NCBI GenBank assembly: GCA_963699255.1
Contig: OY969425.1
Coordinates: 1,560,001-1,592,000 of the forward strand
Length of the DNA stretch: 32,000 nucleotides
Source of the DNA: an uncultured bacterium
GTDB lineage: Bacteria > Margulisbacteria > WOR-1 > CAVSGV01
Reading direction: 5' to 3'
Shown here: piece after piece, positions 5,083 to 26,763 of the stretch
Numbering within the stretch: the stretch's first letter is position 1
How the letters are laid out: the number at the start of each line of letters is the position of its first letter
Made by a program: the position numbers and the translations under genes
Notes under the pieces: generated by a model
What the model was told of the DNA's origin: nothing
What the model saw: the letters and a program-made list of their open reading frames with translations, nothing else
Databases searched by the model: none

Positions 5083-5128
5083 GCCCTTCGACAGGCTCAG
5101 GACAAGCCCATTGACAGGCTTATTACGT

Positions 5129-5202
5129 GGCTGGGTAGCTCAGTTGGTTAGAGCATGCGGCTCATACCCGCAGTGTCGGCAGTTCGAATCTGCCCCCAGC
5201 CA
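5129..5202 (+). tRNA. tRNA-Met (anticodon CAT), elongator type
   Basis: Hand-folded cloverleaf: acceptor GGCTGGG/CCCAGCC, D arm GCTC/GAGC, anticodon stem TGCGG/CCGCA with loop CTCATAC, T arm GGCAG-TTCGAAT-CTGCC, discriminator A. CCA is not encoded. The G1-C72 pair argues against an initiator. C38 and the overall sequence resemble elongator Met more than Ile2. Confidence 0.85.
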
Positions 5203-5218
5203 ATTATTAAGATGGCGA

Positions 5219-18940: not shown

Positions 18941-20527
18941 ATGAAGATCGCACTGGCCCAGATCAATCCCACCGTCGGCGCGCTTGAAAGCAACGCGAAG
19001 AAGATCATCGAATACATCGGCAAGGCAAAAGCGCAGGGCGCCGAACTTGTCGTTTTCCCCGAACTCGCGATAACCGGATATCCGCCCGAAGACCTGGTCC
19101 TTAAACCTCAGTTCATCGCTGACAACATTGACGCCCTGAAAAAGATCGTAAAAGCCTCAAAGGGAATGGGAGTGTTCGTCGGCTTTGTGGACAGGAAAGG
19201 CAAAGACCTGTATAACGCCGGCGCTTTCATCGATAACGGAAAGATCATCAAGATATACCATAAGAACCACCTGCCTAATTACGGAGTCTTTGACGAGAAG
19301 AGATATTTCAAGGAAGGGGAGGGATCCGCGGTCGTCAGCTTCCGCGGGGTAAAGATCGGCCTCGGAATATGCGAGGACATATGGGTGGAAGACGGGCCGT
19401 ACAAGGGCGAAGCGAAGGCGGGGGCAAAGATAATACTAAATATCAACGCCTCTCCGTATGAAGCCGGCAAGATATATGACAGGGAAAAGATACTGAAGAA
19501 AAGGGCGATCGGCACAAGGGCTCACATAGTTTACGTCAATATGGTCGGCGGGCAGGATGAGCTGGTCTTTGACGGCGGCAGCATGGTCATTAACGGCAAG
19601 GGGAAGCTGATCGCTTCCGCCCCGCAGTATAAAGAAGCGCTTTTGATCATAGACGAAAAAGGCGGGAAGATCACGCCCAGGCTCGAACCTCTCGCCGAGA
19701 TATACGAAGCTCTGACAATGGGCGTCCGCGACTATGTAGATAAGAACAAATTCGGCGGAGTGATAATCGGGATATCCGGCGGGATCGATTCTGCCCTTAC
19801 CGCAACTATCGCCTGCGACGCGCTCGGGAAGGAAAGGATCCACACCGTTTTCATGCCATCGGAATATACGGCGAAGCAGAGCCTTGATGATTCGGTCATG
19901 GTGACGAAAAATCTGGGCGTAAAAATGGATACCATCCCTATCAAGGACATTTTCTCGCAGTATCTCTCCACCCTGGCACCCAGCTTCCGCGGAAGACCCG
20001 CTGACATCGCCGAGGAAAACCTGCAGGCGAGGATAAGAGGCAATATATTAATGGCGCTGTCGAACAAATTCGGCTGGCTCGTCCTGAACACCGGGAATAA
20101 ATCCGAGACTTCAACTGGATATTGCACGCTTTACGGGGACATGGCGGGCGGATTCAGCGTCCTGAAGGACATCCCGAAAACGCTGGCCTATAAGCTGGTG
20201 AACTGGAGGAACAAAAAGAAATCAGTAATTCCTCAGTCGATCATCGACAGGGTCCCGACGGCCGAACTGAAGCCTGATCAGAAAGACCAGGATACCCTGC
20301 CTTCTTACGAAGTGCTTGATCCGATAATGAATGCTTACGTCGAGGAGAACAAAAATGTCCGGCAGATCGTCGCAAAGGGGTTTGATAAAGCGACCGTGTC
20401 AAAGGTCGTTTCGCTGATAGACCGCTCTGAATACAAGAGGCGCCAGTCGGCTCCCGGGACAAGGATCACCCACCGTGCTTTCGGCAAGGACTGGAGACTG
20501 CCAATAACGAATCATTATAAGGCTTAA
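18941..20527 (+). CDS. nadE: glutamine-dependent NAD+ synthetase (CN-hydrolase domain plus NAD synthase domain)
   Basis: 528 aa. N-terminal nitrilase-like domain (VVFPELAITGYPPEDL, GLGICEDIW), then the PP-loop GISGGIDSAL, and NKSE..TGYCTLYGDMAGG. Confidence 0.93.
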   Translation: MKIALAQINPTVGALESNAKKIIEYIGKAKAQGAELVVFPELAITGYPPEDLVLKPQFIADNIDALKKIVKASKGMGVFVGFVDRKGKDLYNAGAFIDNGKIIKIYHKNHLPNYGVFDEKRYFKEGEGSAVVSFRGVKIGLGICEDIWVEDGPYKGEAKAGAKIILNINASPYEAGKIYDREKILKKRAIGTRAHIVYVNMVGGQDELVFDGGSMVINGKGKLIASAPQYKEALLIIDEKGGKITPRLEPLAEIYEALTMGVRDYVDKNKFGGVIIGISGGIDSALTATIACDALGKERIHTVFMPSEYTAKQSLDDSVMVTKNLGVKMDTIPIKDIFSQYLSTLAPSFRGRPADIAEENLQARIRGNILMALSNKFGWLVLNTGNKSETSTGYCTLYGDMAGGFSVLKDIPKTLAYKLVNWRNKKKSVIPQSIIDRVPTAELKPDQKDQDTLPSYEVLDPIMNAYVEENKNVRQIVAKGFDKATVSKVVSLIDRSEYKRRQSAPGTRITHRAFGKDWRLPITNHYKA

Positions 20528-20708
20528 GTTGAGCCTCTCATTTTTCCATTCTCCTCCCGTTTGTAATTTGGAATTTATTTGGTAATTGGTCATTGCCGAA
20601 CAAAGTGAGGTCTTAGCCCTAATAAGAGCTAATTGGAACCAGATTATAACAGAGCTTATGAGTATCTACAAATTAAGAGAATTGGCACCAGCTATATGAT
20701 TAAACACT

Positions 20709-20736
20709 CCCTAATGGTATTGGAATTAGGGTTTTA
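20709..20736 (+). terminator. rho-independent terminator at the left end of the element
   Basis: CCCTAAT (20709-20715) / ATTAGGG (20725-20731), 9-nt loop, then TTTT. Confidence 0.55.
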
Positions 20737-20761
20737 TGAGTAAGGCTTGACTAAGAAAAGG

Positions 20762-20977
20762 TTAGAATTTAAGCAATTCAGAGCAAGTCAAATTAAATGC
20801 TTTGGCTAATTTTTCAAGAGTATCTATCTTAATTGCAACTGGGGCTTTGCTTTCTATTCTTTGAAGGTGCTTATAGTCTATGCCTGCTAAACTTGCCAGA
20901 TTTTCTTGTGTATAATCGAATTTTCTGCGCAGCTCTTTTATTCTTTTAGCCAGTTGATTTTTGATGTTGACTTGCAT
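20762..20977 (-). CDS. XRE-family helix-turn-helix transcriptional regulator
   Basis: 71 aa from the ATG at 20977. LAKRIKELRRKFDYTQENLASLAGIDYKHLQRIE..., a typical HTH_3 pattern. Confidence 0.8.
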   Translation of the reverse strand: MQVNIKNQLAKRIKELRRKFDYTQENLASLAGIDYKHLQRIESKAPVAIKIDTLEKLAKAFNLTCSELLKF

Positions 20978-21012
20978 TACAGGGAAATTATCACACCAAC
21001 CACCGACACTTG

Positions 21013-21186
21013 ACACCGCATACGTGCGGTGTTAGGGTTTATCTCACAATAAAGGGACGTATATGAAAAGTGGCTCTTGAGGGCTGGGTTCAAAGCCCAA
21101 ATTAAGCTCGAAAAAGTGGCTTGAACAGAGAGTGAACAGAGAGAAATAGGGGGCTACTTCGTGCTTCAAGCACGATTCAAGCACGA
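21013..21186. promoter_or_regulatory. repeat-dense divergent control region between the XRE gene and the small-TM/TPR operon
   Basis: Inverted repeat ACACCGCA/TGCGGTGT (21013-21032). AAAAGTGGCT x2 (21066, 21112). TGAACAGAGAG x2 in tandem (21122-21143). Palindrome TCGTGCTTCAAGCACGA (21159-21175), followed by a second TTCAAGCACGA (21176-21186). Confidence 0.55.
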
Positions 21187-21205
21187 AAAAAAGGAGAGGA
21201 GAAAA

Positions 21206-21406
21206 ATGACAATTACACCTGAAGATAGAGAGGAAATAACCAAAGGGGTTTTCAGGGCACAGAAAAGAAGCCAATGGAGAGGAACTCTGCTTTGGCTTGC
21301 TATATTCCTTGGTTGGCTTCCTTGTATGCTGATATTTCCAAAGGCAAGCGGTTATGTTTATATTGGGCTGATAGTTTTAAGCATTTGGTATTATGTTAAA
21401 GGATAA
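21206..21406 (+). CDS. small two-TM membrane protein (hypothetical)
   Basis: 66 aa from the ATG at 21206, preceded by AAGGAGAGGAG. Two hydrophobic segments. Confidence 0.5.
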   Translation: MTITPEDREEITKGVFRAQKRSQWRGTLLWLAIFLGWLPCMLIFPKASGYVYIGLIVLSIWYYVKG

Positions 21407-21432
21407 GAGACAATAAAAGGAGGTAAAAGAAA

Positions 21433-23286
21433 ATGAAAAAAATAATAATAGGGCTTATATTTTTATGTTTAAGTTCTACAGCTATATTTGCAGATAATAT
21501 TAAAAATGCGGAGAATTACTTATATCGAGGTTTAGCAAAAGTTGAATTACAAGACTATCGAGGAGCTATAGAGGACTTAACAAAAGCGATAGAGCTGAAT
21601 CCTAAAAATGCAAAAGCTTACTGTGGTCGAGGTTCTGCCAACAGTGCGCTAGGAGACCATGCGGGTGCTATTGAGGAATTTAATAAAGCAATAGAGTTAG
21701 CCCCTAATTATGCGCCTGCTTACTATCTTCGGGGTTGTGTTAAAAGTGGGCTGAAAGACTATCAAGGAGCTATCGAGGACTTAACAAAAGCAATAAAGAT
21801 AGACCCTACATATGCGGAGGCATATTATCTTCGAGCAAACTCTTATGGTGCGCTAGCTGGTGCTGAGCAGAATGTAAAATACTATACAAAATCTGGGAAG
21901 GATATGAAGAACTATAGTAAAGTAAAAGGAATAAACAATACAAAAGCTATTGAGGTAATAAAGCTAATCCCTCAAAATGCAGAAGATTACTTAAATCGAG
22001 GGAAGGCTAAAATGGTGACAGGAGACGATGCGGGCGCGAATGAAGACTACAAAAAAGCTATCGAGGTCGCCACCAAAGCAATAGAGCTAACCCCTAAAAA
22101 TATAGAGGATTACTATAGTCAAGGCAATTCTGACTATGAAGTTGGAAATTATACACTCGCTATAGATGACTGCGATAAAGCAATAGAGTTAGACCCTAAT
22201 TATGCGCCTGTTTACTATCTTCGAGGAAAGGCTAAAGACGGGTTGGAAGACTCTATAGGAGCTACAAAAGACTTTAATAAAGTAATCGAGCTAACCCCAA
22301 AATATGCAGAGGATTACTTCTATCGAGGGGAGGCTAAGACTGCTTTAAAAGACTATGCAGGAGCCATTGATGAGTGCAATGCAGCAATAAAGTTAGACCC
22401 AAAAGATGCAAGGGCATACTATGGCCGAGGTTTCGCCGAAGCGAACTTAAAGGACTATACAAATGCTATTGATGACTGCAATAAAGCAATAAAGTTAGAC
22501 TCTAAAGATGCAAAGGCATACTATAGCCGAGGTTTCGCTGAAGCGAACTTAAAGGACTACACAAGTGCTATAGATGACTGTGATAAAGCTATAGAGTTGG
22601 ACTCTAATTATGCACCCGCTTACTTTATTCGAGGTTTCGCTAAAGCTCAGGTAAAAGACTATAAAAAAGCTATCAGTGACTTTGATGAAGTAATAGGGCG
22701 ACACCCTAATACAACGGCTTACCTATATCGAGGCAATGCTAAATATCGCTTAAAAAACTATACGGGCGCTATGGATGACTGCATGACAGTAATAAGGTTA
22801 GACCCTAAAAATGCACAGGCTTACTATCTTTTTGGCTATGCTGAACTAGACTCTGCTAATGAAGGTTTGCATAGAATAAAAGACTATGCAGAAGCTATCG
22901 ATTACTTTAATAAAGCAATAGAGTTAAATCCCAAATTTGCAGAGGCTTATTGTGGCCGAGGTAAGGCTAAAGGTGCGCTTGGAGACCATTCAGCAATCGA
23001 TGACTGCAATAAAGCAATAGAGCTAAACCCTAATGCAGAGATTTACTGTGAGTGTGGTTGGACTAAGGTCAACTTAAAAGATTATTCAGCTGCCATAGAT
23101 GACTTCAATACAGCAATAAAATTAGACCCAAAAAATGGAAGGGCTTATTGTGGTCGAGGGTTAGCTAAATTTGAACAGGGAGATAAACAAGGAGCATTAG
23201 AAGACGAAAGCACAGCAGGTGAGTTAGGTTTTTCTGGGGCATATGAGGTTATAAAAGAAATACAGTCAGGCGAACTTGCCAAGTAA
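21433..23286 (+). CDS. secreted tetratricopeptide-repeat protein
   Basis: 617 aa. Strong RBS AAAGGAGG. Signal peptide IIIGLIFLCLSSTAIFA. More than 12 34-aa TPR units (A.AYY.RG.AK..L.DY.GAI.D..KAIELDP). Confidence 0.85.
   Translation: MKKIIIGLIFLCLSSTAIFADNIKNAENYLYRGLAKVELQDYRGAIEDLTKAIELNPKNAKAYCGRGSANSALGDHAGAIEEFNKAIELAPNYAPAYYLRGCVKSGLKDYQGAIEDLTKAIKIDPTYAEAYYLRANSYGALAGAEQNVKYYTKSGKDMKNYSKVKGINNTKAIEVIKLIPQNAEDYLNRGKAKMVTGDDAGANEDYKKAIEVATKAIELTPKNIEDYYSQGNSDYEVGNYTLAIDDCDKAIELDPNYAPVYYLRGKAKDGLEDSIGATKDFNKVIELTPKYAEDYFYRGEAKTALKDYAGAIDECNAAIKLDPKDARAYYGRGFAEANLKDYTNAIDDCNKAIKLDSKDAKAYYSRGFAEANLKDYTSAIDDCDKAIELDSNYAPAYFIRGFAKAQVKDYKKAISDFDEVIGRHPNTTAYLYRGNAKYRLKNYTGAMDDCMTVIRLDPKNAQAYYLFGYAELDSANEGLHRIKDYAEAIDYFNKAIELNPKFAEAYCGRGKAKGALGDHSAIDDCNKAIELNPNAEIYCECGWTKVNLKDYSAAIDDFNTAIKLDPKNGRAYCGRGLAKFEQGDKQGALEDESTAGELGFSGAYEVIKEIQSGELAK
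22384..22587 (+). repeat. near-identical 102-bp (one TPR unit) tandem duplication
   Basis: GCAATAAAGTTAGAC... starts at 22384 and 22486. The two units differ at only a handful of positions. Confidence 0.85.
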
Positions 23287-23367
23287 AAGAAGTTGAAAGG
23301 CGCTTAAGAATCGAGAATTATGCTCAGAACATTCCGCCTTTGTTATGAAACAGAAACATATTTATAC

Positions 23368-23415
23368 TTGACAGTATAATTGAGGCATAATAGAATTATA
23401 CTTAAAGGTATAATT
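23368..23415 (+). promoter_or_regulatory. promoter with three GTATAATT operator-like sites
   Basis: TTGACA (23368-23373), 17 nt, TAGAAT (23391-23396). GTATAATT at 23374 and 23408, and its inverse AATTATAC at 23394-23401. These overlap the spacer, the -10 and the RBS region. Confidence 0.6.
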
Positions 23416-23416
23416 T

Positions 23417-24352
23417 ATGAGCGAAAACAAACCCACCCTAAAAAAATTACTAACAGAACAACTGTATAACAATAGAAAAGTTGATGCTTATCTATCAGAA
23501 AATTATAAGATTACTAAACAAACTTTTGTCGACCTTCACGAGCCAATCTTTACGCTAAAAAACTCACAAACTATAGTTAACAACTTAACGTATCGCAAGG
23601 TTAATGATTGGGATGCAAAAAACATAATATCAGGTTCCAGAGATAACGCTGAGTCAGGTTGGCGTAAATTTTCTGCAATAGACATCATCAAATTACTCAT
23701 AATAACTGACCTTAGGAAAATTGGATGCTCCATAGATAAAATAAAGAAAATCCTTTATGAAATTGCAAATGGGAAAGTCAACTTATGGAAACTCGAATAT
23801 CCTGATGGGAAAGCAAATCTTCGCCGGCTCAAAGAGTATAAGGAAGAGGAAGATAGGTTTTTACAGCTTGAATATTACACTTTAGGATGCTTGGGTGGTG
23901 AAAAAATAGTTCTTTCAATTGATGAAAATGATAATCCCATGTTTCTTATTGAGCGTGATTTTGTAAGCTTTTATTCCGCACTTGAAGACAGCGCCTCCCC
24001 TTTCATAGTCCTTCCATTTTTCTCATACATACACGCACTTGCAAGAAAATATGGAGACATGAATATTAAAATACGTGAAGGCTCTACAATATCCGAATTA
24101 TTCAATAATATCCTAACTGAAAAAGAGAAAAAAATAATCGATATTATTAGAAATAAAGATTTTCAAGAAATCAATATCAATAAAACCGATAAAGAGGAAT
24201 TAAATATAAAAGCAAAATCGAGAAAAAACAAACAACTGTCTAATAAGGAAATAATTGAACTTATCAAAAGTAAACAGTATCAAAAGGTTGAAGTTATTAC
24301 TTCGGCTGGGAAAATAGTAGCAGCGATACAAGAAGAAAGCATCAAGGCTTAG
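23417..24352 (+). CDS. hypothetical protein with a MerR-like HTH segment
   Basis: 311 aa. Residues ~55-115 (LTYRKVNDWDAKNII...GWRKFSAIDIIKLLIITDLRKIGCSIDKIKKIL) follow the MerR-family pattern (.Y....G.......G.R.YS..D...L..I..LR..G.S...I). The rest is unrecognised. Confidence 0.6.
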   Translation: MSENKPTLKKLLTEQLYNNRKVDAYLSENYKITKQTFVDLHEPIFTLKNSQTIVNNLTYRKVNDWDAKNIISGSRDNAESGWRKFSAIDIIKLLIITDLRKIGCSIDKIKKILYEIANGKVNLWKLEYPDGKANLRRLKEYKEEEDRFLQLEYYTLGCLGGEKIVLSIDENDNPMFLIERDFVSFYSALEDSASPFIVLPFFSYIHALARKYGDMNIKIREGSTISELFNNILTEKEKKIIDIIRNKDFQEININKTDKEELNIKAKSRKNKQLSNKEIIELIKSKQYQKVEVITSAGKIVAAIQEESIKA

Positions 24353-24450
24353 ACTATTGAGACAAACTCAGAGTTTATAGCCTTTATTCTATAATATTTT
24401 AGCAAGGGGCATCAGTATCAAACTGGACTCAATGCAAGAGGAGTCCAGTT

Positions 24451-24609
24451 ATGCTGACTGTCGAACAATGCAGGAAGCACTTAAAAGGAAAGTATACCGA
24501 CGAACAGATTGAAGAAATGAAAGAGGCCTTATACAAATTAGCTGAGGTGTTAGTAGGTGAATATCTCGGCAAAGCGAGGCAAACAAATGACAACCGAAAA
24601 ACAAATTGA
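24451..24609 (+). CDS. small hypothetical protein (52 aa, below the ORF-track cutoff)
   Basis: ATG at 24451, 8 nt after GAGGAG. Translation MLTVEQCRKHLKGKYTDEQIEEMKEALYKLAEVLVGEYLGKARQTNDNRKTN. It overlaps the next ORF's start. Confidence 0.4.
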   Translation: MLTVEQCRKHLKGKYTDEQIEEMKEALYKLAEVLVGEYLGKARQTNDNRKTN

Positions 24610-25117
24610 GGCAAACAAACTAAATGCCTTAAAAGGCGGAGTTAAAACTATTGAGGGGAAATCTATCAGCAAAATGAATGCTCTGAAATTCGGGTTTTTC
24701 AGTAAGATAGTCAATGATTATGATAAGCTGGAGAGCGAAGATTTCTGTCAGGAAATATACGAGTATTATCAACCTGAGAATACCTATGAAAGTCAATTAG
24801 TTGAGATTGTTCTTTCTAACCTTCTTGTATATAGAAGAATATGCTTTATTGAGGACGAATATATAAAGTCACAATTGAATCCAACTATTACAGGCTCTTT
24901 AAGTGACGCTGACTATTTTATGGTGAAGAAAGGGTATACTCCTCAAATAGCCAGCAACTCAATTGATGAACTTGAAAAATTTCAGAAATATAAAACCTCA
25001 ACTTATGGGCTGATTGTAAAGGCTCAGCATGAGCTTGAACGTTTAACTGCAAAAAGAAAGGGGGATAATATCCCCATTCCGATGAGTTTGGACGTGAATG
25101 TTTCAAACAATCAATAA
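24587..25117 (+). CDS. hypothetical protein
   Basis: 176 aa from the ATG at 24587. The N-terminus MTTEKQIEANKLNALKGGVKTIEGKSISKMNALKFGF resembles, from memory, an uncharacterised family with a 'QIxANRxNAxKSTGPxTxEGKxxSxxNAxKHG' N-terminus. I cannot verify this without a search. Confidence 0.5.
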   Translation: MTTEKQIEANKLNALKGGVKTIEGKSISKMNALKFGFFSKIVNDYDKLESEDFCQEIYEYYQPENTYESQLVEIVLSNLLVYRRICFIEDEYIKSQLNPTITGSLSDADYFMVKKGYTPQIASNSIDELEKFQKYKTSTYGLIVKAQHELERLTAKRKGDNIPIPMSLDVNVSNNQ

Positions 25118-25232
25118 TTGGGTTCGTTTTGGAAAAACAGAAAAAGGGGACTCCCTGCTTCTAGCAGGGTTCTAGCAGGCAAATTCAGTTGCTCTGCTAT
25201 ACATGAGGCATTAAAAGAGATATGACGGAACT

Positions 25233-26729
25233 ATGAAAGCTATTATCTATTGCAGGGTATCAACAAAAGAACAAGCCGAACAAGGTTATAGTCTTGAAGG
25301 ACAGGAAAAAGAATGTAAACGGTTTGCTCAAGATAAGGGCTATGAAATTGATAGGGTGTTCATTGAGCGAGGAGAAAGCGCAAAGACACAGAATAGAACT
25401 GAACTTCAGAAACTTGTTAAGTATTGCATAGAGAAAAGGAAACAACTATCTGCCCTCGTTATTTGGAAGTATGACCGCCTTACAAGAAATCTTTCCGACC
25501 AAATGGAACTTGTAAAGACTTTTAGCTCTTTTGATATTAGAGTATTATCGGCAACAGAAAATAATGAAGATAGCTCTATTGGTAAGTTAATGAGAAACAT
25601 TATCGGCTCTTTCTCTCAATTCGAGAATGATATAAGGGCTGAGAGAACCATCAATGGCATGAAACAAGCTCTACTACAAGGGAGATGGTGCTGGCATGCT
25701 CCTCTCGGTTATAAACTAGCAAAAGACGATAAAAATAAAACAATATTAGTCCCTTCAGAAAATAACAAGCAAGTTGCAAAAGCCTTTCAGATGGCTGAAC
25801 TCGGCACATATAAACAATCGGAAATAGTGGAATATCTCAAGAAAAATAACCTCACAATAACCAAAAGCACACTTAATAGAATACTTAGGAATCCTCTTTA
25901 TGCAGGATTGATAAAAGTATCATGGCATAGCGATTATATCGAGGCAATACATAAGCCCACTATTTCAAAGGAAGCCTTTTTTAAGGTTCAGCTTATTCTG
26001 AGTGGAAAACGACCAAGTATCGCCCCAAAATTAAGGAATCATCCTGACTTTCCTTTAAGGAATTTTGTTAAATGTTCAGCCTGTGGGAAGAAACTCACAG
26101 GAAGTTGGTCTACAGGAAGAAAAAAGGTCAAATATGCTTATTATCATTGTAGAACTAAGGGATGTTCGCTTAATGTAAAGAAAGAAGCTCTAGACGCTAA
26201 ATTCTATGAGCTATTAAGGTCTATACAGCCAAATGCGGATGTTTTAGCTTTATTTGAAGCTATTATATTGGATGTATGGAAAAACAAGCAGGCAGAGCAA
26301 ATTAAAGAGGAATACAGGCTTGAAATGGAGTTGAATGCTCTTTCAAAAAAGAAAGATAGAATTGACGAGCTTATGATTAAAGGCACTTTTGATGACGCAA
26401 CTTATAAAAAGAAAATTGAAGAAATGAATAGTGAAATAATTATTAAAAGAACAGAATTGAATGAGGCGAAAATTGAACTGAATGACGCAGAGGCTTGTTT
26501 AAACTACTGTAAATCCTTTCTTTCAAATCTATCAAATCTTTGGGTTAATGCTCCACTTGACCTAAAACAACGGTTCCAAAGCCTTGTCTTTCCAGAGGGA
26601 ATAGCTTTTGACGGAGAAAAGTTTGGAACCGCTAATATTTCGCTTATCTTCAAGGAATTAAGCTCGGAAAATATTGCCAAATCTTCTTTGGTAGCCCTAA
26701 CGGGAGTCGAACCCGTGTTTACGCCTTGA
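25233..26729 (+). CDS. large serine recombinase (integrase)
   Basis: 498 aa. Resolvase catalytic domain AIIYCRVSTKEQ...YDRLTRN..., a recombinase domain, a zinc ribbon CSACGKKLTG...YYHCRTKGC, and a coiled coil. The last ~12 codons (VALTGVEPVFTP) are the antisense reading of tRNA-Glu. Confidence 0.9.
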   Translation: MKAIIYCRVSTKEQAEQGYSLEGQEKECKRFAQDKGYEIDRVFIERGESAKTQNRTELQKLVKYCIEKRKQLSALVIWKYDRLTRNLSDQMELVKTFSSFDIRVLSATENNEDSSIGKLMRNIIGSFSQFENDIRAERTINGMKQALLQGRWCWHAPLGYKLAKDDKNKTILVPSENNKQVAKAFQMAELGTYKQSEIVEYLKKNNLTITKSTLNRILRNPLYAGLIKVSWHSDYIEAIHKPTISKEAFFKVQLILSGKRPSIAPKLRNHPDFPLRNFVKCSACGKKLTGSWSTGRKKVKYAYYHCRTKGCSLNVKKEALDAKFYELLRSIQPNADVLALFEAIILDVWKNKQAEQIKEEYRLEMELNALSKKKDRIDELMIKGTFDDATYKKKIEEMNSEIIIKRTELNEAKIELNDAEACLNYCKSFLSNLSNLWVNAPLDLKQRFQSLVFPEGIAFDGEKFGTANISLIFKELSSENIAKSSLVALTGVEPVFTP

Positions 26730-26763
26730 GAGGGCGCTGTCCTAACCACTAGACGATAGGGCC
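26689..26763 (-). tRNA. tRNA-Glu (anticodon CTC), CCA encoded
   Basis: The reverse complement folds as acceptor GGCCCTA/TAGGGCT, D arm GTCT/GGAC, anticodon stem GCGCC/GGCGT with loop CTCTCAA, T arm ACGGG-TTCGACT-CCCGT, then A-CCA. Confidence 0.9.

Follow-up and report, generated by a model that had tools for sequence, protein, structure and literature searches.

What happens to a recombinase gene when the site of recombination lies within the gene itself? The question is raised by a stretch of 32,000 nucleotides from an uncultured bacterium of the Margulisbacteria (contig OY969425.1, positions 1,560,001 to 1,592,000, forward strand)—this whole stretch is called the window below, and window coordinates are counted from its first letter. 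Positions 20623 to 26700 (approximately) form a 6.1-kb integrative element in the 3′ end of a tRNA-Glu(CTC) gene, and the element encodes a large serine recombinase (LSR). A preliminary description of the window proposed that the open reading frame (ORF) of the LSR crosses the attachment site, so that the integrated and free forms differ in their C-termini. This proposal is borne out across a whole clade, by the tails of homologues and by in-frame tails at the far ends of integrated elements; the comparison confirms that the attachment site of the free element (attP) lies inside the LSR's own ORF, 25 codons before its stop, and that the free and integrated forms encode different C-termini.

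The LSR ORF (25233-26729, plus strand) translates to 498 aa ending in ...KSSLVALTGVEPVFTP. ARAGORN calls the tRNA-Glu(CTC) on the minus strand (26689-26763), and the ORF therefore closes with 41 nt of antisense tRNA. A 9-mer, TAGCCCTAA, which comprises the tRNA discriminator and the 3′ strand of the acceptor stem, is found at 26692-26700 and, 6.1 kb upstream, at 20614-20622. With the element ends joined at this 9-mer, the LSR frame runs on as IRANWNQIITELMSIYKLRELAPAI for another 25 codons to a stop at 20697-20699; the circle form encodes 489 + 25 = 514 aa and the inserted form 489 + 9 = 498 aa, the nine being set by the tRNA. The reconstructed circular junction would read ...TTGGTAGCCCTAATAAGAGC..., and the reconstructed empty site would read ...GGTCTTAGCCCTAACGGG.... 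The parts of this arrangement, with attL and attR denoting the left and right attachment sites of the inserted element and attB the host site, are as follows.

20614..20622, plus strand: attL core, the 9-mer TAGCCCTAA, tRNA 3′ acceptor-stem sequence read antisense; exact repeat of 26692-26700.
20623..20699, plus strand: detached 3′ end of the LSR gene, the 25 codons (I)RANWNQIITELMSIYKLRELAPAI and a stop, read only with the element ends joined.
20633..20640, plus strand: P′ arm motif TTGGAACC, at once the W-N codons and a mimic of the tRNA T-loop; putative binding motif in attP of DNA-binding domain 2 (DBD2), the zinc-ribbon domain.
20709..20735, plus strand: hairpin CCCTAAT/ATTAGGG followed by TTTT, a weak terminator candidate; the gap from stop to hairpin is 9 nt.
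25233..26729, plus strand: LSR gene in the integrated state, 498 aa; residues 1-489 belong to both isoforms, and the last 9 codons are antisense tRNA.
26689..26763, minus strand: tRNA-Glu(CTC), the target gene (ARAGORN).
26692..26700, plus strand: attR core, the 9-mer TAGCCCTAA; the crossover dinucleotide is inside it, most likely within TAGCCC (26692-26697).
26707..26713, plus strand: B′ arm motif TCGAACC, the antisense tRNA T-loop; putative DBD2 motif of attB.

The coordinates and frames of the preliminary description—the ORF, the copies of the 9-mer, the joined frame, its stop and the hairpin—hold apart from one-base details. The last nine codons, which it placed wholly beyond the 9-mer, are antisense tRNA as it said, but position 26700, where the 9-mer ends, is already the first base of the Thr codon ACG, so the tail taken from the tRNA overlaps the repeat by one base. 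Similarly, CCCTAAT(9 nt)ATTAGGG is present at 20709-20731 and is followed by TTTT, but the gap after the stop is one base shorter than the 10 nt reported.

By itself, the window is weak evidence for a split gene. Of the other 9-mers in the 80-nt stretch at the tRNA end, many unrelated ones also have a further copy within the 32 kb, and an open run of at least 25 codons arises in about 10% of cases in shuffled or antisense sequence of the same composition. The 25-codon continuation had been called hard to put down to chance; with a window-only probability of about 0.1, it is not.

Relatives of the LSR carry the argument. The joined 514-aa protein was used as the search query, and 92 of its 120 closest homologues (50-69% identity) end in an antisense T-arm peptide, GxEP, about ten residues past a conserved L-V-A-P (for example TGFEPVFSA); G-F-E-P is the tRNA T-arm read antisense. 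A minority of the 120 have longer ends that align to the predicted tail, such as ..LVAPSGFTWNQILQDIENIFKFKDLVP, ..LVSPELFSWNQILQDMKNIFELGQF and ..VVAYSKFHWKQLLQELSAIYRMRELLP. The comparison of homologous C-termini proposed in the preliminary description thus gives a clear result: the tails of homologues that are not in a tRNA align with its 25-aa 'circular' tail. We also assembled 160 loci from genomes and metagenomes (28-63% identity), whose hosts include Scalindua, Melainabacteria, Acidobacteriota, Elusimicrobia, candidate phyla radiation (CPR) lineages, Verrucomicrobiota and Bacteroidota. The C-terminus is complete in 130 of these loci, and in 89 the LSR—its ORF intact—ends inside an antisense tRNA; the targets are Glu (39), Ala (22), Lys (6), His (6), Asn (5), Arg (4), Leu (3), Ile (2), Ser (1) and Asp (1).

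Relatives outside tRNA genes share the tail motif W-N-Q-I-x-x-E-L-x-x-I-x-x-L-R, found in the attP-form tails of P0016, P0050, P0085, P0108, P0110, P0112, L031, L041, L123, L126, L136, L142, L152, L157, L167 and L171, all of which were picked up by homology to the enzyme body alone. Three attP-form contigs have terminal overlaps as seen in circular assemblies: L163 (7258 nt, 30-nt overlap), L031 (5509 nt, 55-nt overlap) and L164 (5590 nt, 17-nt overlap). Because circular-type contigs carry the attP-form LSR, the free form exists and encodes the long protein.

In integrated elements, the tail can be found at the far end. Upstream of the LSR, a tail pattern derived from eight sequences gave 23 matches on the plus strand vs 2 on a reverse-strand control, over 518 kb. 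A first hidden Markov model of the tail, built from 8 sequences, was too narrow for distant subfamilies and gave way to a broader pattern that selects hydrophobic residues at four positions. For all 27 testable upstream tails, that is, those whose LSR ends in a tRNA, the best tRNA-end repeat lies at most 45 nt before the tail, and joining at this repeat keeps the LSR frame (27/27). The repeats are 7-16 nt long in 24 of the 27 cases; all 24 are in frame, with a chance probability of ~3e-12, uncorrected for related or duplicate loci. Across the tested relatives, the attL core is 1.8-9.7 kb from the LSR start.

P0002/L166, the closest relative, shares 69% identity and occupies the same tRNA-Glu(CTC), with a 13-nt repeat, TTGGTAGCCCTAA, followed by the in-frame tail IHSNWNHIINDLMAIYKLRELAPAV. 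Its tail has the same length as that of the window, and the tails are 72% identical vs 69% for the bodies; the tail codons differ by 6 synonymous and 7 non-synonymous changes. Leaving aside the terminal residue, both tails end in the same ten residues, IYKLRELAPA, despite 4 synonymous changes. Together, these reconstructions show a self-split LSR gene to be the standard design of a large clade in many bacterial phyla.

Some relatives have a more elaborate context. L167 and L171, predicted viral contigs from IMG/VR (46 and 42 kb), carry distant members of the clade in the attP form, ending in ..PRAA and ..PLAA; small islands are thus not the only carriers of the clade, and some tails resemble ssrA-type endings. 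On a 14-kb contig (L001:1-6950), the attP-form LSR module P0016 adjoins type I-B-like cas genes (Cas6, Cas3, Cas8b and a Cas4/Cas1 fusion) and an HsdM fragment. An Acidobacteriota contig (L022:285-3030) has four attL-like sites to the left of an LSR-bearing element, spaced by 857, 914 and 916 nt, each made up of the tRNA-end copy TTGGTGGACC followed by TTGGAACC and a tail of 18 aa in frame; units of ~0.9 kb without a recombinase seem to have accreted here in tandem, and L037 has two sites of the same kind. In L002:7700-15800, two or more complete elements (MerR-like gene, small ORFs, LSR) stand in tandem, and the junction between neighbours is attP-like, so the upstream LSR reads into the tail of the next element; an unrelated second LSR with a DUF2924 partner is found just upstream of the array.

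The tail is also part of the attachment site, and the two roles must be separated. We aligned 18 reconstructed attP sites on the tRNA terminal base (offset 0): TGG, the CCA, occupies 0..+2, CCC occupies +6..+8, and a near-invariant TTGGAACC occupies +22..+29 in 15-18 of the 18 sites, where it supplies the W-N codons. The T-loop sequence TCGAACC stands at +18..+24 in the tRNA arm of attB and attR, a consensus present in 15-18 of 18 loci. The shift between TGGAACC in the P′ arm (+23..+29) and TCGAACC in the B′ arm (+18..+24) is exactly 5 bp in 21/21 junctions from 19 loci. A recent preprint (bioRxiv 10.1101/2025.01.03.631226, citing the LI integrase-attP structure) gives the position of DBD2 motifs, 5 bp nearer the centre in attB than in attP, as the rule by which LSRs discriminate between sites; judged from the reconstructed sites, the attP/attB geometry is canonical for an LSR. 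The right arm of attP thus copies the tRNA twice—once as CCA, discriminator and acceptor stem (L-V-A-P/L in the ORF), and again as the T-loop mimic TGGAACC (W-N in the ORF). Because the W-N codons double as T-loop mimic, part of the tail conservation is a DNA constraint. We infer that the universal T-loop, as the outer attB motif, would explain the spread of the clade over many tRNA species.

Shared cores of relatives confine the crossover to offsets +3..+8, TAGCCC. A dyad scan gave a weak family-wide symmetry peak at +4/+5, which corresponds to AG in the window, whereas the symmetry of the window itself is highest at +6/+7 (CC); a crossover centred on CC is possible. The more telling feature of attP is the T-loop mimic displaced by 5 bp. 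Imperfect dyad symmetry around this CC had been pointed out in the preliminary description, and the window symmetry does peak there, but the family-wide peak is 2 bp to the left and neither is convincing; the 10 of 18 symmetric arm positions are reached at 0.75% of random centres, before any correction for a centre chosen post hoc among about nine. Inspection of the left-arm consensus by eye gave no clear motif mirroring TTGGAACC in the P arm. In the Melainabacteria elements L004-L007, a perfect 8-9-bp hairpin, AAGACGCC...GGCGTCTT, is found ~10-30 nt before the tRNA end, in the LSR 3′ coding end and the P arm of attP; it might be a terminator for the opposite-strand tRNA, or part of the att site.

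An intact tRNA-Glu is called across the junction by ARAGORN, with its terminal bases, including CCA, coming from the element, which supplies the last 4-12 nt of the tRNA. TGG stands at the CCA position in all 18 aligned attP sites. The uninterrupted tRNA-Glu of the window would encode no CCA—its attB is rebuilt as ...GGGCTA-AGA, where AGA corresponds to 20611-20613 on the tRNA strand—and the inserted element supplies an encoded one.

The enzyme itself is conventional. Its Pfam domains are Resolvase (PF00239, 1.9e-36, residues 3-152), Recombinase (PF07508, 1.9e-09) and Zn_ribbon_recom (PF13408, 3e-07), and R8 and S10 in YCRVSTKEQ of the resolvase-type catalytic domain are conserved in at least 90% of sequences across 58 homologues. 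AlphaFold predicts long helices at 335-382 and 388-413, giving a zinc ribbon with an inserted coiled coil. Foldseek with this model returned the full-length SPbeta (E 1e-19), Bxb1 and PhiC31 integrases, together with LI integrase C-terminal DNA-binding domains. By domains, predicted fold and reconstructed site geometry, the enzyme is a large serine integrase.

Beyond the DNA motif, the tail bears the marks of a protein under selection. From +33 on, its second codon positions are invariant T and its first and third positions are free; mean diversity at codon positions 1/2/3 is 0.66/0.43/0.70 over tail codons 4-16 vs 0.75/0.75/0.75 past the stop. Features that no search pattern selected point the same way. 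Among 45 unique tails, Arg is found at position 15 in 28, the distance from W to the stop is exactly 18 residues in 16, and the C-terminal residue is Ala in 27 (background 10%), with Ala-Ala in 15 (background 1.4%). The hydrophobic spacing of 1, 4, 8, 11 and 14 is that of an amphipathic helix, and AlphaFold places a helix at W494-E509, with a predicted local distance difference test score (pLDDT) of ~75 against a model mean of 84.7, followed by L-A-P-A-I. These substitution patterns show that conservation past W-N-Q is at the protein level.

What does such a gene do? Integration cuts it at the crossover; the 489 promoter-proximal codons stay by the tRNA and are completed by nine antisense-tRNA codons, and the true last 25 codons end up at the element's opposite end, at a distance of 6.1 kb. 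Because selection maintains the helix though it is detached whenever the element is inserted, the helix is probably a working part of the circle-made enzyme, which is the enzyme doing the integration. Integration would then automatically swap the integrase for a tail-less isoform, presumably with altered properties. An LSR element with attP in its own gene, two isoforms and a helix that functions in the circle enzyme is, in our assessment, very probably the best explanation overall.

Several points weigh against this reading. For the window's own element, neither the empty attB nor the circular junction was found. The broader pattern detected a tail in only 20/63 integrated loci with more than 2 kb upstream; the remaining loci may have larger elements or more divergent tails. 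The hydrophobic part of the tail conservation is partly circular, as four hydrophobic positions were required by the search pattern, and the conservation of W-N-Q is accounted for by the DNA site alone. Finally, the C-terminus of SPbeta integrase is needed for excision, whereas the tail here is present in the opposite, free state.

Two alternatives would do without a working helix. The repeat and the open frame might be coincidental, with the element boundary elsewhere, and indeed the 9-mer and the 25 codons alone are not significant; however, the GC boundary coincides with the repeat, and L166 shows the same arrangement with its 13-nt repeat and homologous tail. Given L166 and the family-wide in-frame result, we regard coincidence as refuted, with a negligible probability. 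The ORF might instead merely read through attP, so that the tail conservation would reflect P′ arm DNA and the peptide would have no role. The strongest conservation, TTGGAACC, is indeed a DNA motif matching the tRNA T-loop at the expected LSR binding position, but conservation runs 40-50 nt past the expected footprint, with T at second positions and free third positions; the tail also has a conserved Arg, a fixed length and an Ala terminus, and over the last ten residues before the terminal one the window and L166 differ by synonymous changes only. No such periodicity is seen past the stop, and this by-product explanation is largely refuted and very improbable.

The role of the helix within the split-gene reading is less certain. 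Our tentative preference, and a possibility rather than an expectation, is that it acts on the zinc-ribbon/coiled-coil region that sets LSR directionality, so the isoforms would differ in their competence for integration and excision. Work on the SPbeta integrase describes its extreme C-terminus as lining the pocket of the recombination directionality factor (RDF) and as a possible 'toggle switch', with F532 needed for excision and largely not for integration. In a fuller and more speculative version, the helix of the circle enzyme would dock on the zinc-ribbon/coiled-coil hinge (the RDF site in SPbeta) and hold the integration-competent state; the inserted isoform would be excision-competent or RDF-responsive and not integrating, and the T-loop as outer attB motif would explain the use of at least 10 tRNA species. 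If true, directionality would be written in gene topology: each DNA state would provide the enzyme that suits it, and no sensor of its own would be needed. The earlier suggestion that the split gene could bias integration against excision is plausible. A change in stability is about as likely as one in directionality, and hence also doubtful when taken singly: the tail would be a C-terminal degradation signal, making the circle integrase short-lived and the inserted isoform stable. This would fit the Ala-Ala endings in 15/45 unique tails (background 1.4%) and Ala in 27/45, the ..PRAA and ..PLAA endings on viral contigs, and the parallel with an ssrA-like tag lost from the BPs phage repressor on integration. 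However, the window tail ends in ..LAPAI and those of close relatives in ..APAV, ..LPVA, ..SIEA or longer, a conserved 16-residue helix is unneeded for a degron, and most Ala-Ala endings belong to related lineages, which makes the counts non-independent. A loss of activity ranks slightly lower and is on balance unlikely: the tail-less enzyme would be inactive, and exit would need a full-length copy in trans, as has been proposed for archaeal SSV-type integrases. The position of the att site inside the recombinase gene, as in 'suicidal' integrases, speaks for such self-disabling integration, as do the tandem arrays and LSR-less attL-like units that are possibly served in trans; yet only the last 5% of the protein is lost, the recognised catalytic and DNA-binding domains all remain, circular forms are abundant enough to assemble from metagenomes, and the LSR ORF is intact in 89 integrated loci.

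Compared with known systems, the split LSR has partial parallels in several places. Studied large serine integrases mostly target protein-coding genes; to our knowledge, their integrase gene does not include attP, and a single protein acts in both states. The present enzyme is like PhiC31, Bxb1, LI/A118 and SPbeta SprA in its domain order—catalytic, recombinase, zinc ribbon with coiled coil—and in the 5-bp attP/attB shift, but unlike studied LSRs it has attP inside the gene, a tRNA 3′ end as target and two isoforms. The likeness extends to SPbeta, where the extreme C-terminus takes part in directionality control; here the C-terminus is what integration changes. SSV1-type elements of archaea also insert in tRNA genes. 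Like their 'suicidal' tyrosine integrases (SSV1, pTN3 and pT26-2 type), the LSR has its site inside the recombinase gene, which integration partitions, so that gene and site form one compact module. Suicidal integrases are tyrosine recombinases that are split into two inactive halves, and a 2021 review describes self-disrupting recombinases as known only from archaea. Unlike the suicidal integrases (PF16795), the LSR has serine recombinase domains only and relatives in bacterial metagenome-assembled genomes, and it is split 25 codons from its end, so the recognised domains stay together and nine new codons are gained.

The integrase of mycobacteriophage BPs is a tyrosine recombinase. In BPs and its relatives, attP lies in the repressor gene, and integration removes an ssrA-like C-terminal degradation tag, a system termed integration-dependent immunity. 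The split LSR resembles this type in having attP inside an ORF and an inserted form whose product has a different C-terminus; in contrast, the split gene is the recombinase, and the helix-turn-helix (HTH) regulator gene at 20762-21016 is intact and separate. A tag-like Ala-Ala ending is found in part of the clade only (15/45 tails, viral contigs), and the window tail, ending in ..APAI, is without one. Like P4-like and other tRNA islands, the element inserts at a tRNA 3′ end and restores it with an element-borne copy. Islands that target tRNA genes generally combine a tyrosine integrase with blocks of identity that span tens of bp; the identity here is 7-16 bp, and recognition appears to rest on the displaced T-loop mimic.

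A search of open-access papers turned up neither an LSR gene that crosses attP nor a tRNA-targeting LSR clade like this one; a large LSR survey mentions neither tRNA targets nor wrong C-termini from integrated copies. The split LSR is apparently a third self-interrupting system beside archaeal suicidal integrases and BPs-type repressors, and new for bacteria and for serine recombinases. Isoform pairs that differ naturally only in the extreme C-terminus offer a testable route to LSR directionality control. For integrase mining, integrated copies give a wrong, tRNA-derived C-terminus (92/120 of the closest database entries), and the integration-form enzyme must therefore be rebuilt by joining attR to attL. 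The combination of an acceptor-end copy and a T-loop mimic displaced by 5 bp could serve to predict or re-target tRNA-specific integrases.

The preliminary description further held that integration detaches the LSR terminator, and this idea is not supported. The hairpin at 20709-20731 has a minimum free energy of -11.9 kcal/mol (z = -0.74 vs shuffles) and was not called by a consensus terminator scan of the window; L166 does not conserve its second arm. When hairpins followed by T were searched for with relaxed criteria, terminator-like sites stood past the tail stop in 4/45 elements vs 7.4% of random positions. On all these counts—folding, scan, lack of enrichment and arm loss in L166—we rejected a detached terminator as a family feature. 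A 25-nt block right after the tail stop (about 20707-20726 in the window), TCCCTAWTGGTATTGGAAT, is conserved between the window and L166 and contains TTGGAAT, which resembles the P′ arm motif; the block may be a further site for the recombinase or the operator of the divergent HTH gene.

The setting of the element in the window is that of a low-GC island, where GC falls from ~0.50 to ~0.36 across roughly 20550-26750, flanked by a host NAD synthase gene on the left and the tRNA on the right. Besides the LSR, the island contains a Cro/C1-type HTH gene, a tetratricopeptide repeat (TPR) protein, a MerR-like protein of ~310 aa and two small ORFs; PHROG and Pfam searches recognised no RDF, excisionase or replication protein among the element ORFs, whose products include proteins of 311, 186, 76 and 52 aa. 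The flanking and element genes are as follows.

18941..20527, plus strand: glutamine-dependent NAD synthase gene, the host flank left of the element; Pfam NAD_synthase 1.3e-73 and CN_hydrolase 2.2e-39, GC ~0.52.
20762..21016, minus strand: Cro/C1-type HTH regulator gene, 84 aa; Pfam HTH_3 2.7e-11, PHROG transcriptional regulator/repressor.
21433..23286, plus strand: TPR-repeat protein gene, element cargo, 617 aa; Pfam TPR_1 4.7e-87.
23417..24352, plus strand: conserved element gene, ~310 aa, MerR-like HTH; Pfam MerR_1 2.4e-05, no PHROG match.
24557..25117, plus strand: 186-aa element ORF from the ORF list, immediately preceding the LSR; no match in Pfam or PHROG.

Several of these genes recur in relatives: the HTH gene type is also found at the left end of L164, L165 and L166, counterparts of the MerR-like gene (292-311 aa) lie upstream of the LSR in L001, L002 and L166, and L166 has a 177-aa ORF at the position matching the 186-aa ORF of the window. 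A second tRNA gene in the window, tRNA-Met(CAT) at 5128-5203 on the plus strand, bears no sign of insertion. The stop of the host NAD synthase gene falls within a hairpin that resembles a terminator and has a T-run (AGGCTTAAGTTGAGCCT CTCATTTTTC; 20520-20545, 70 nt to the left of attL). Before insertion, this hairpin would separate two convergent genes, nadE and tRNA-Glu.

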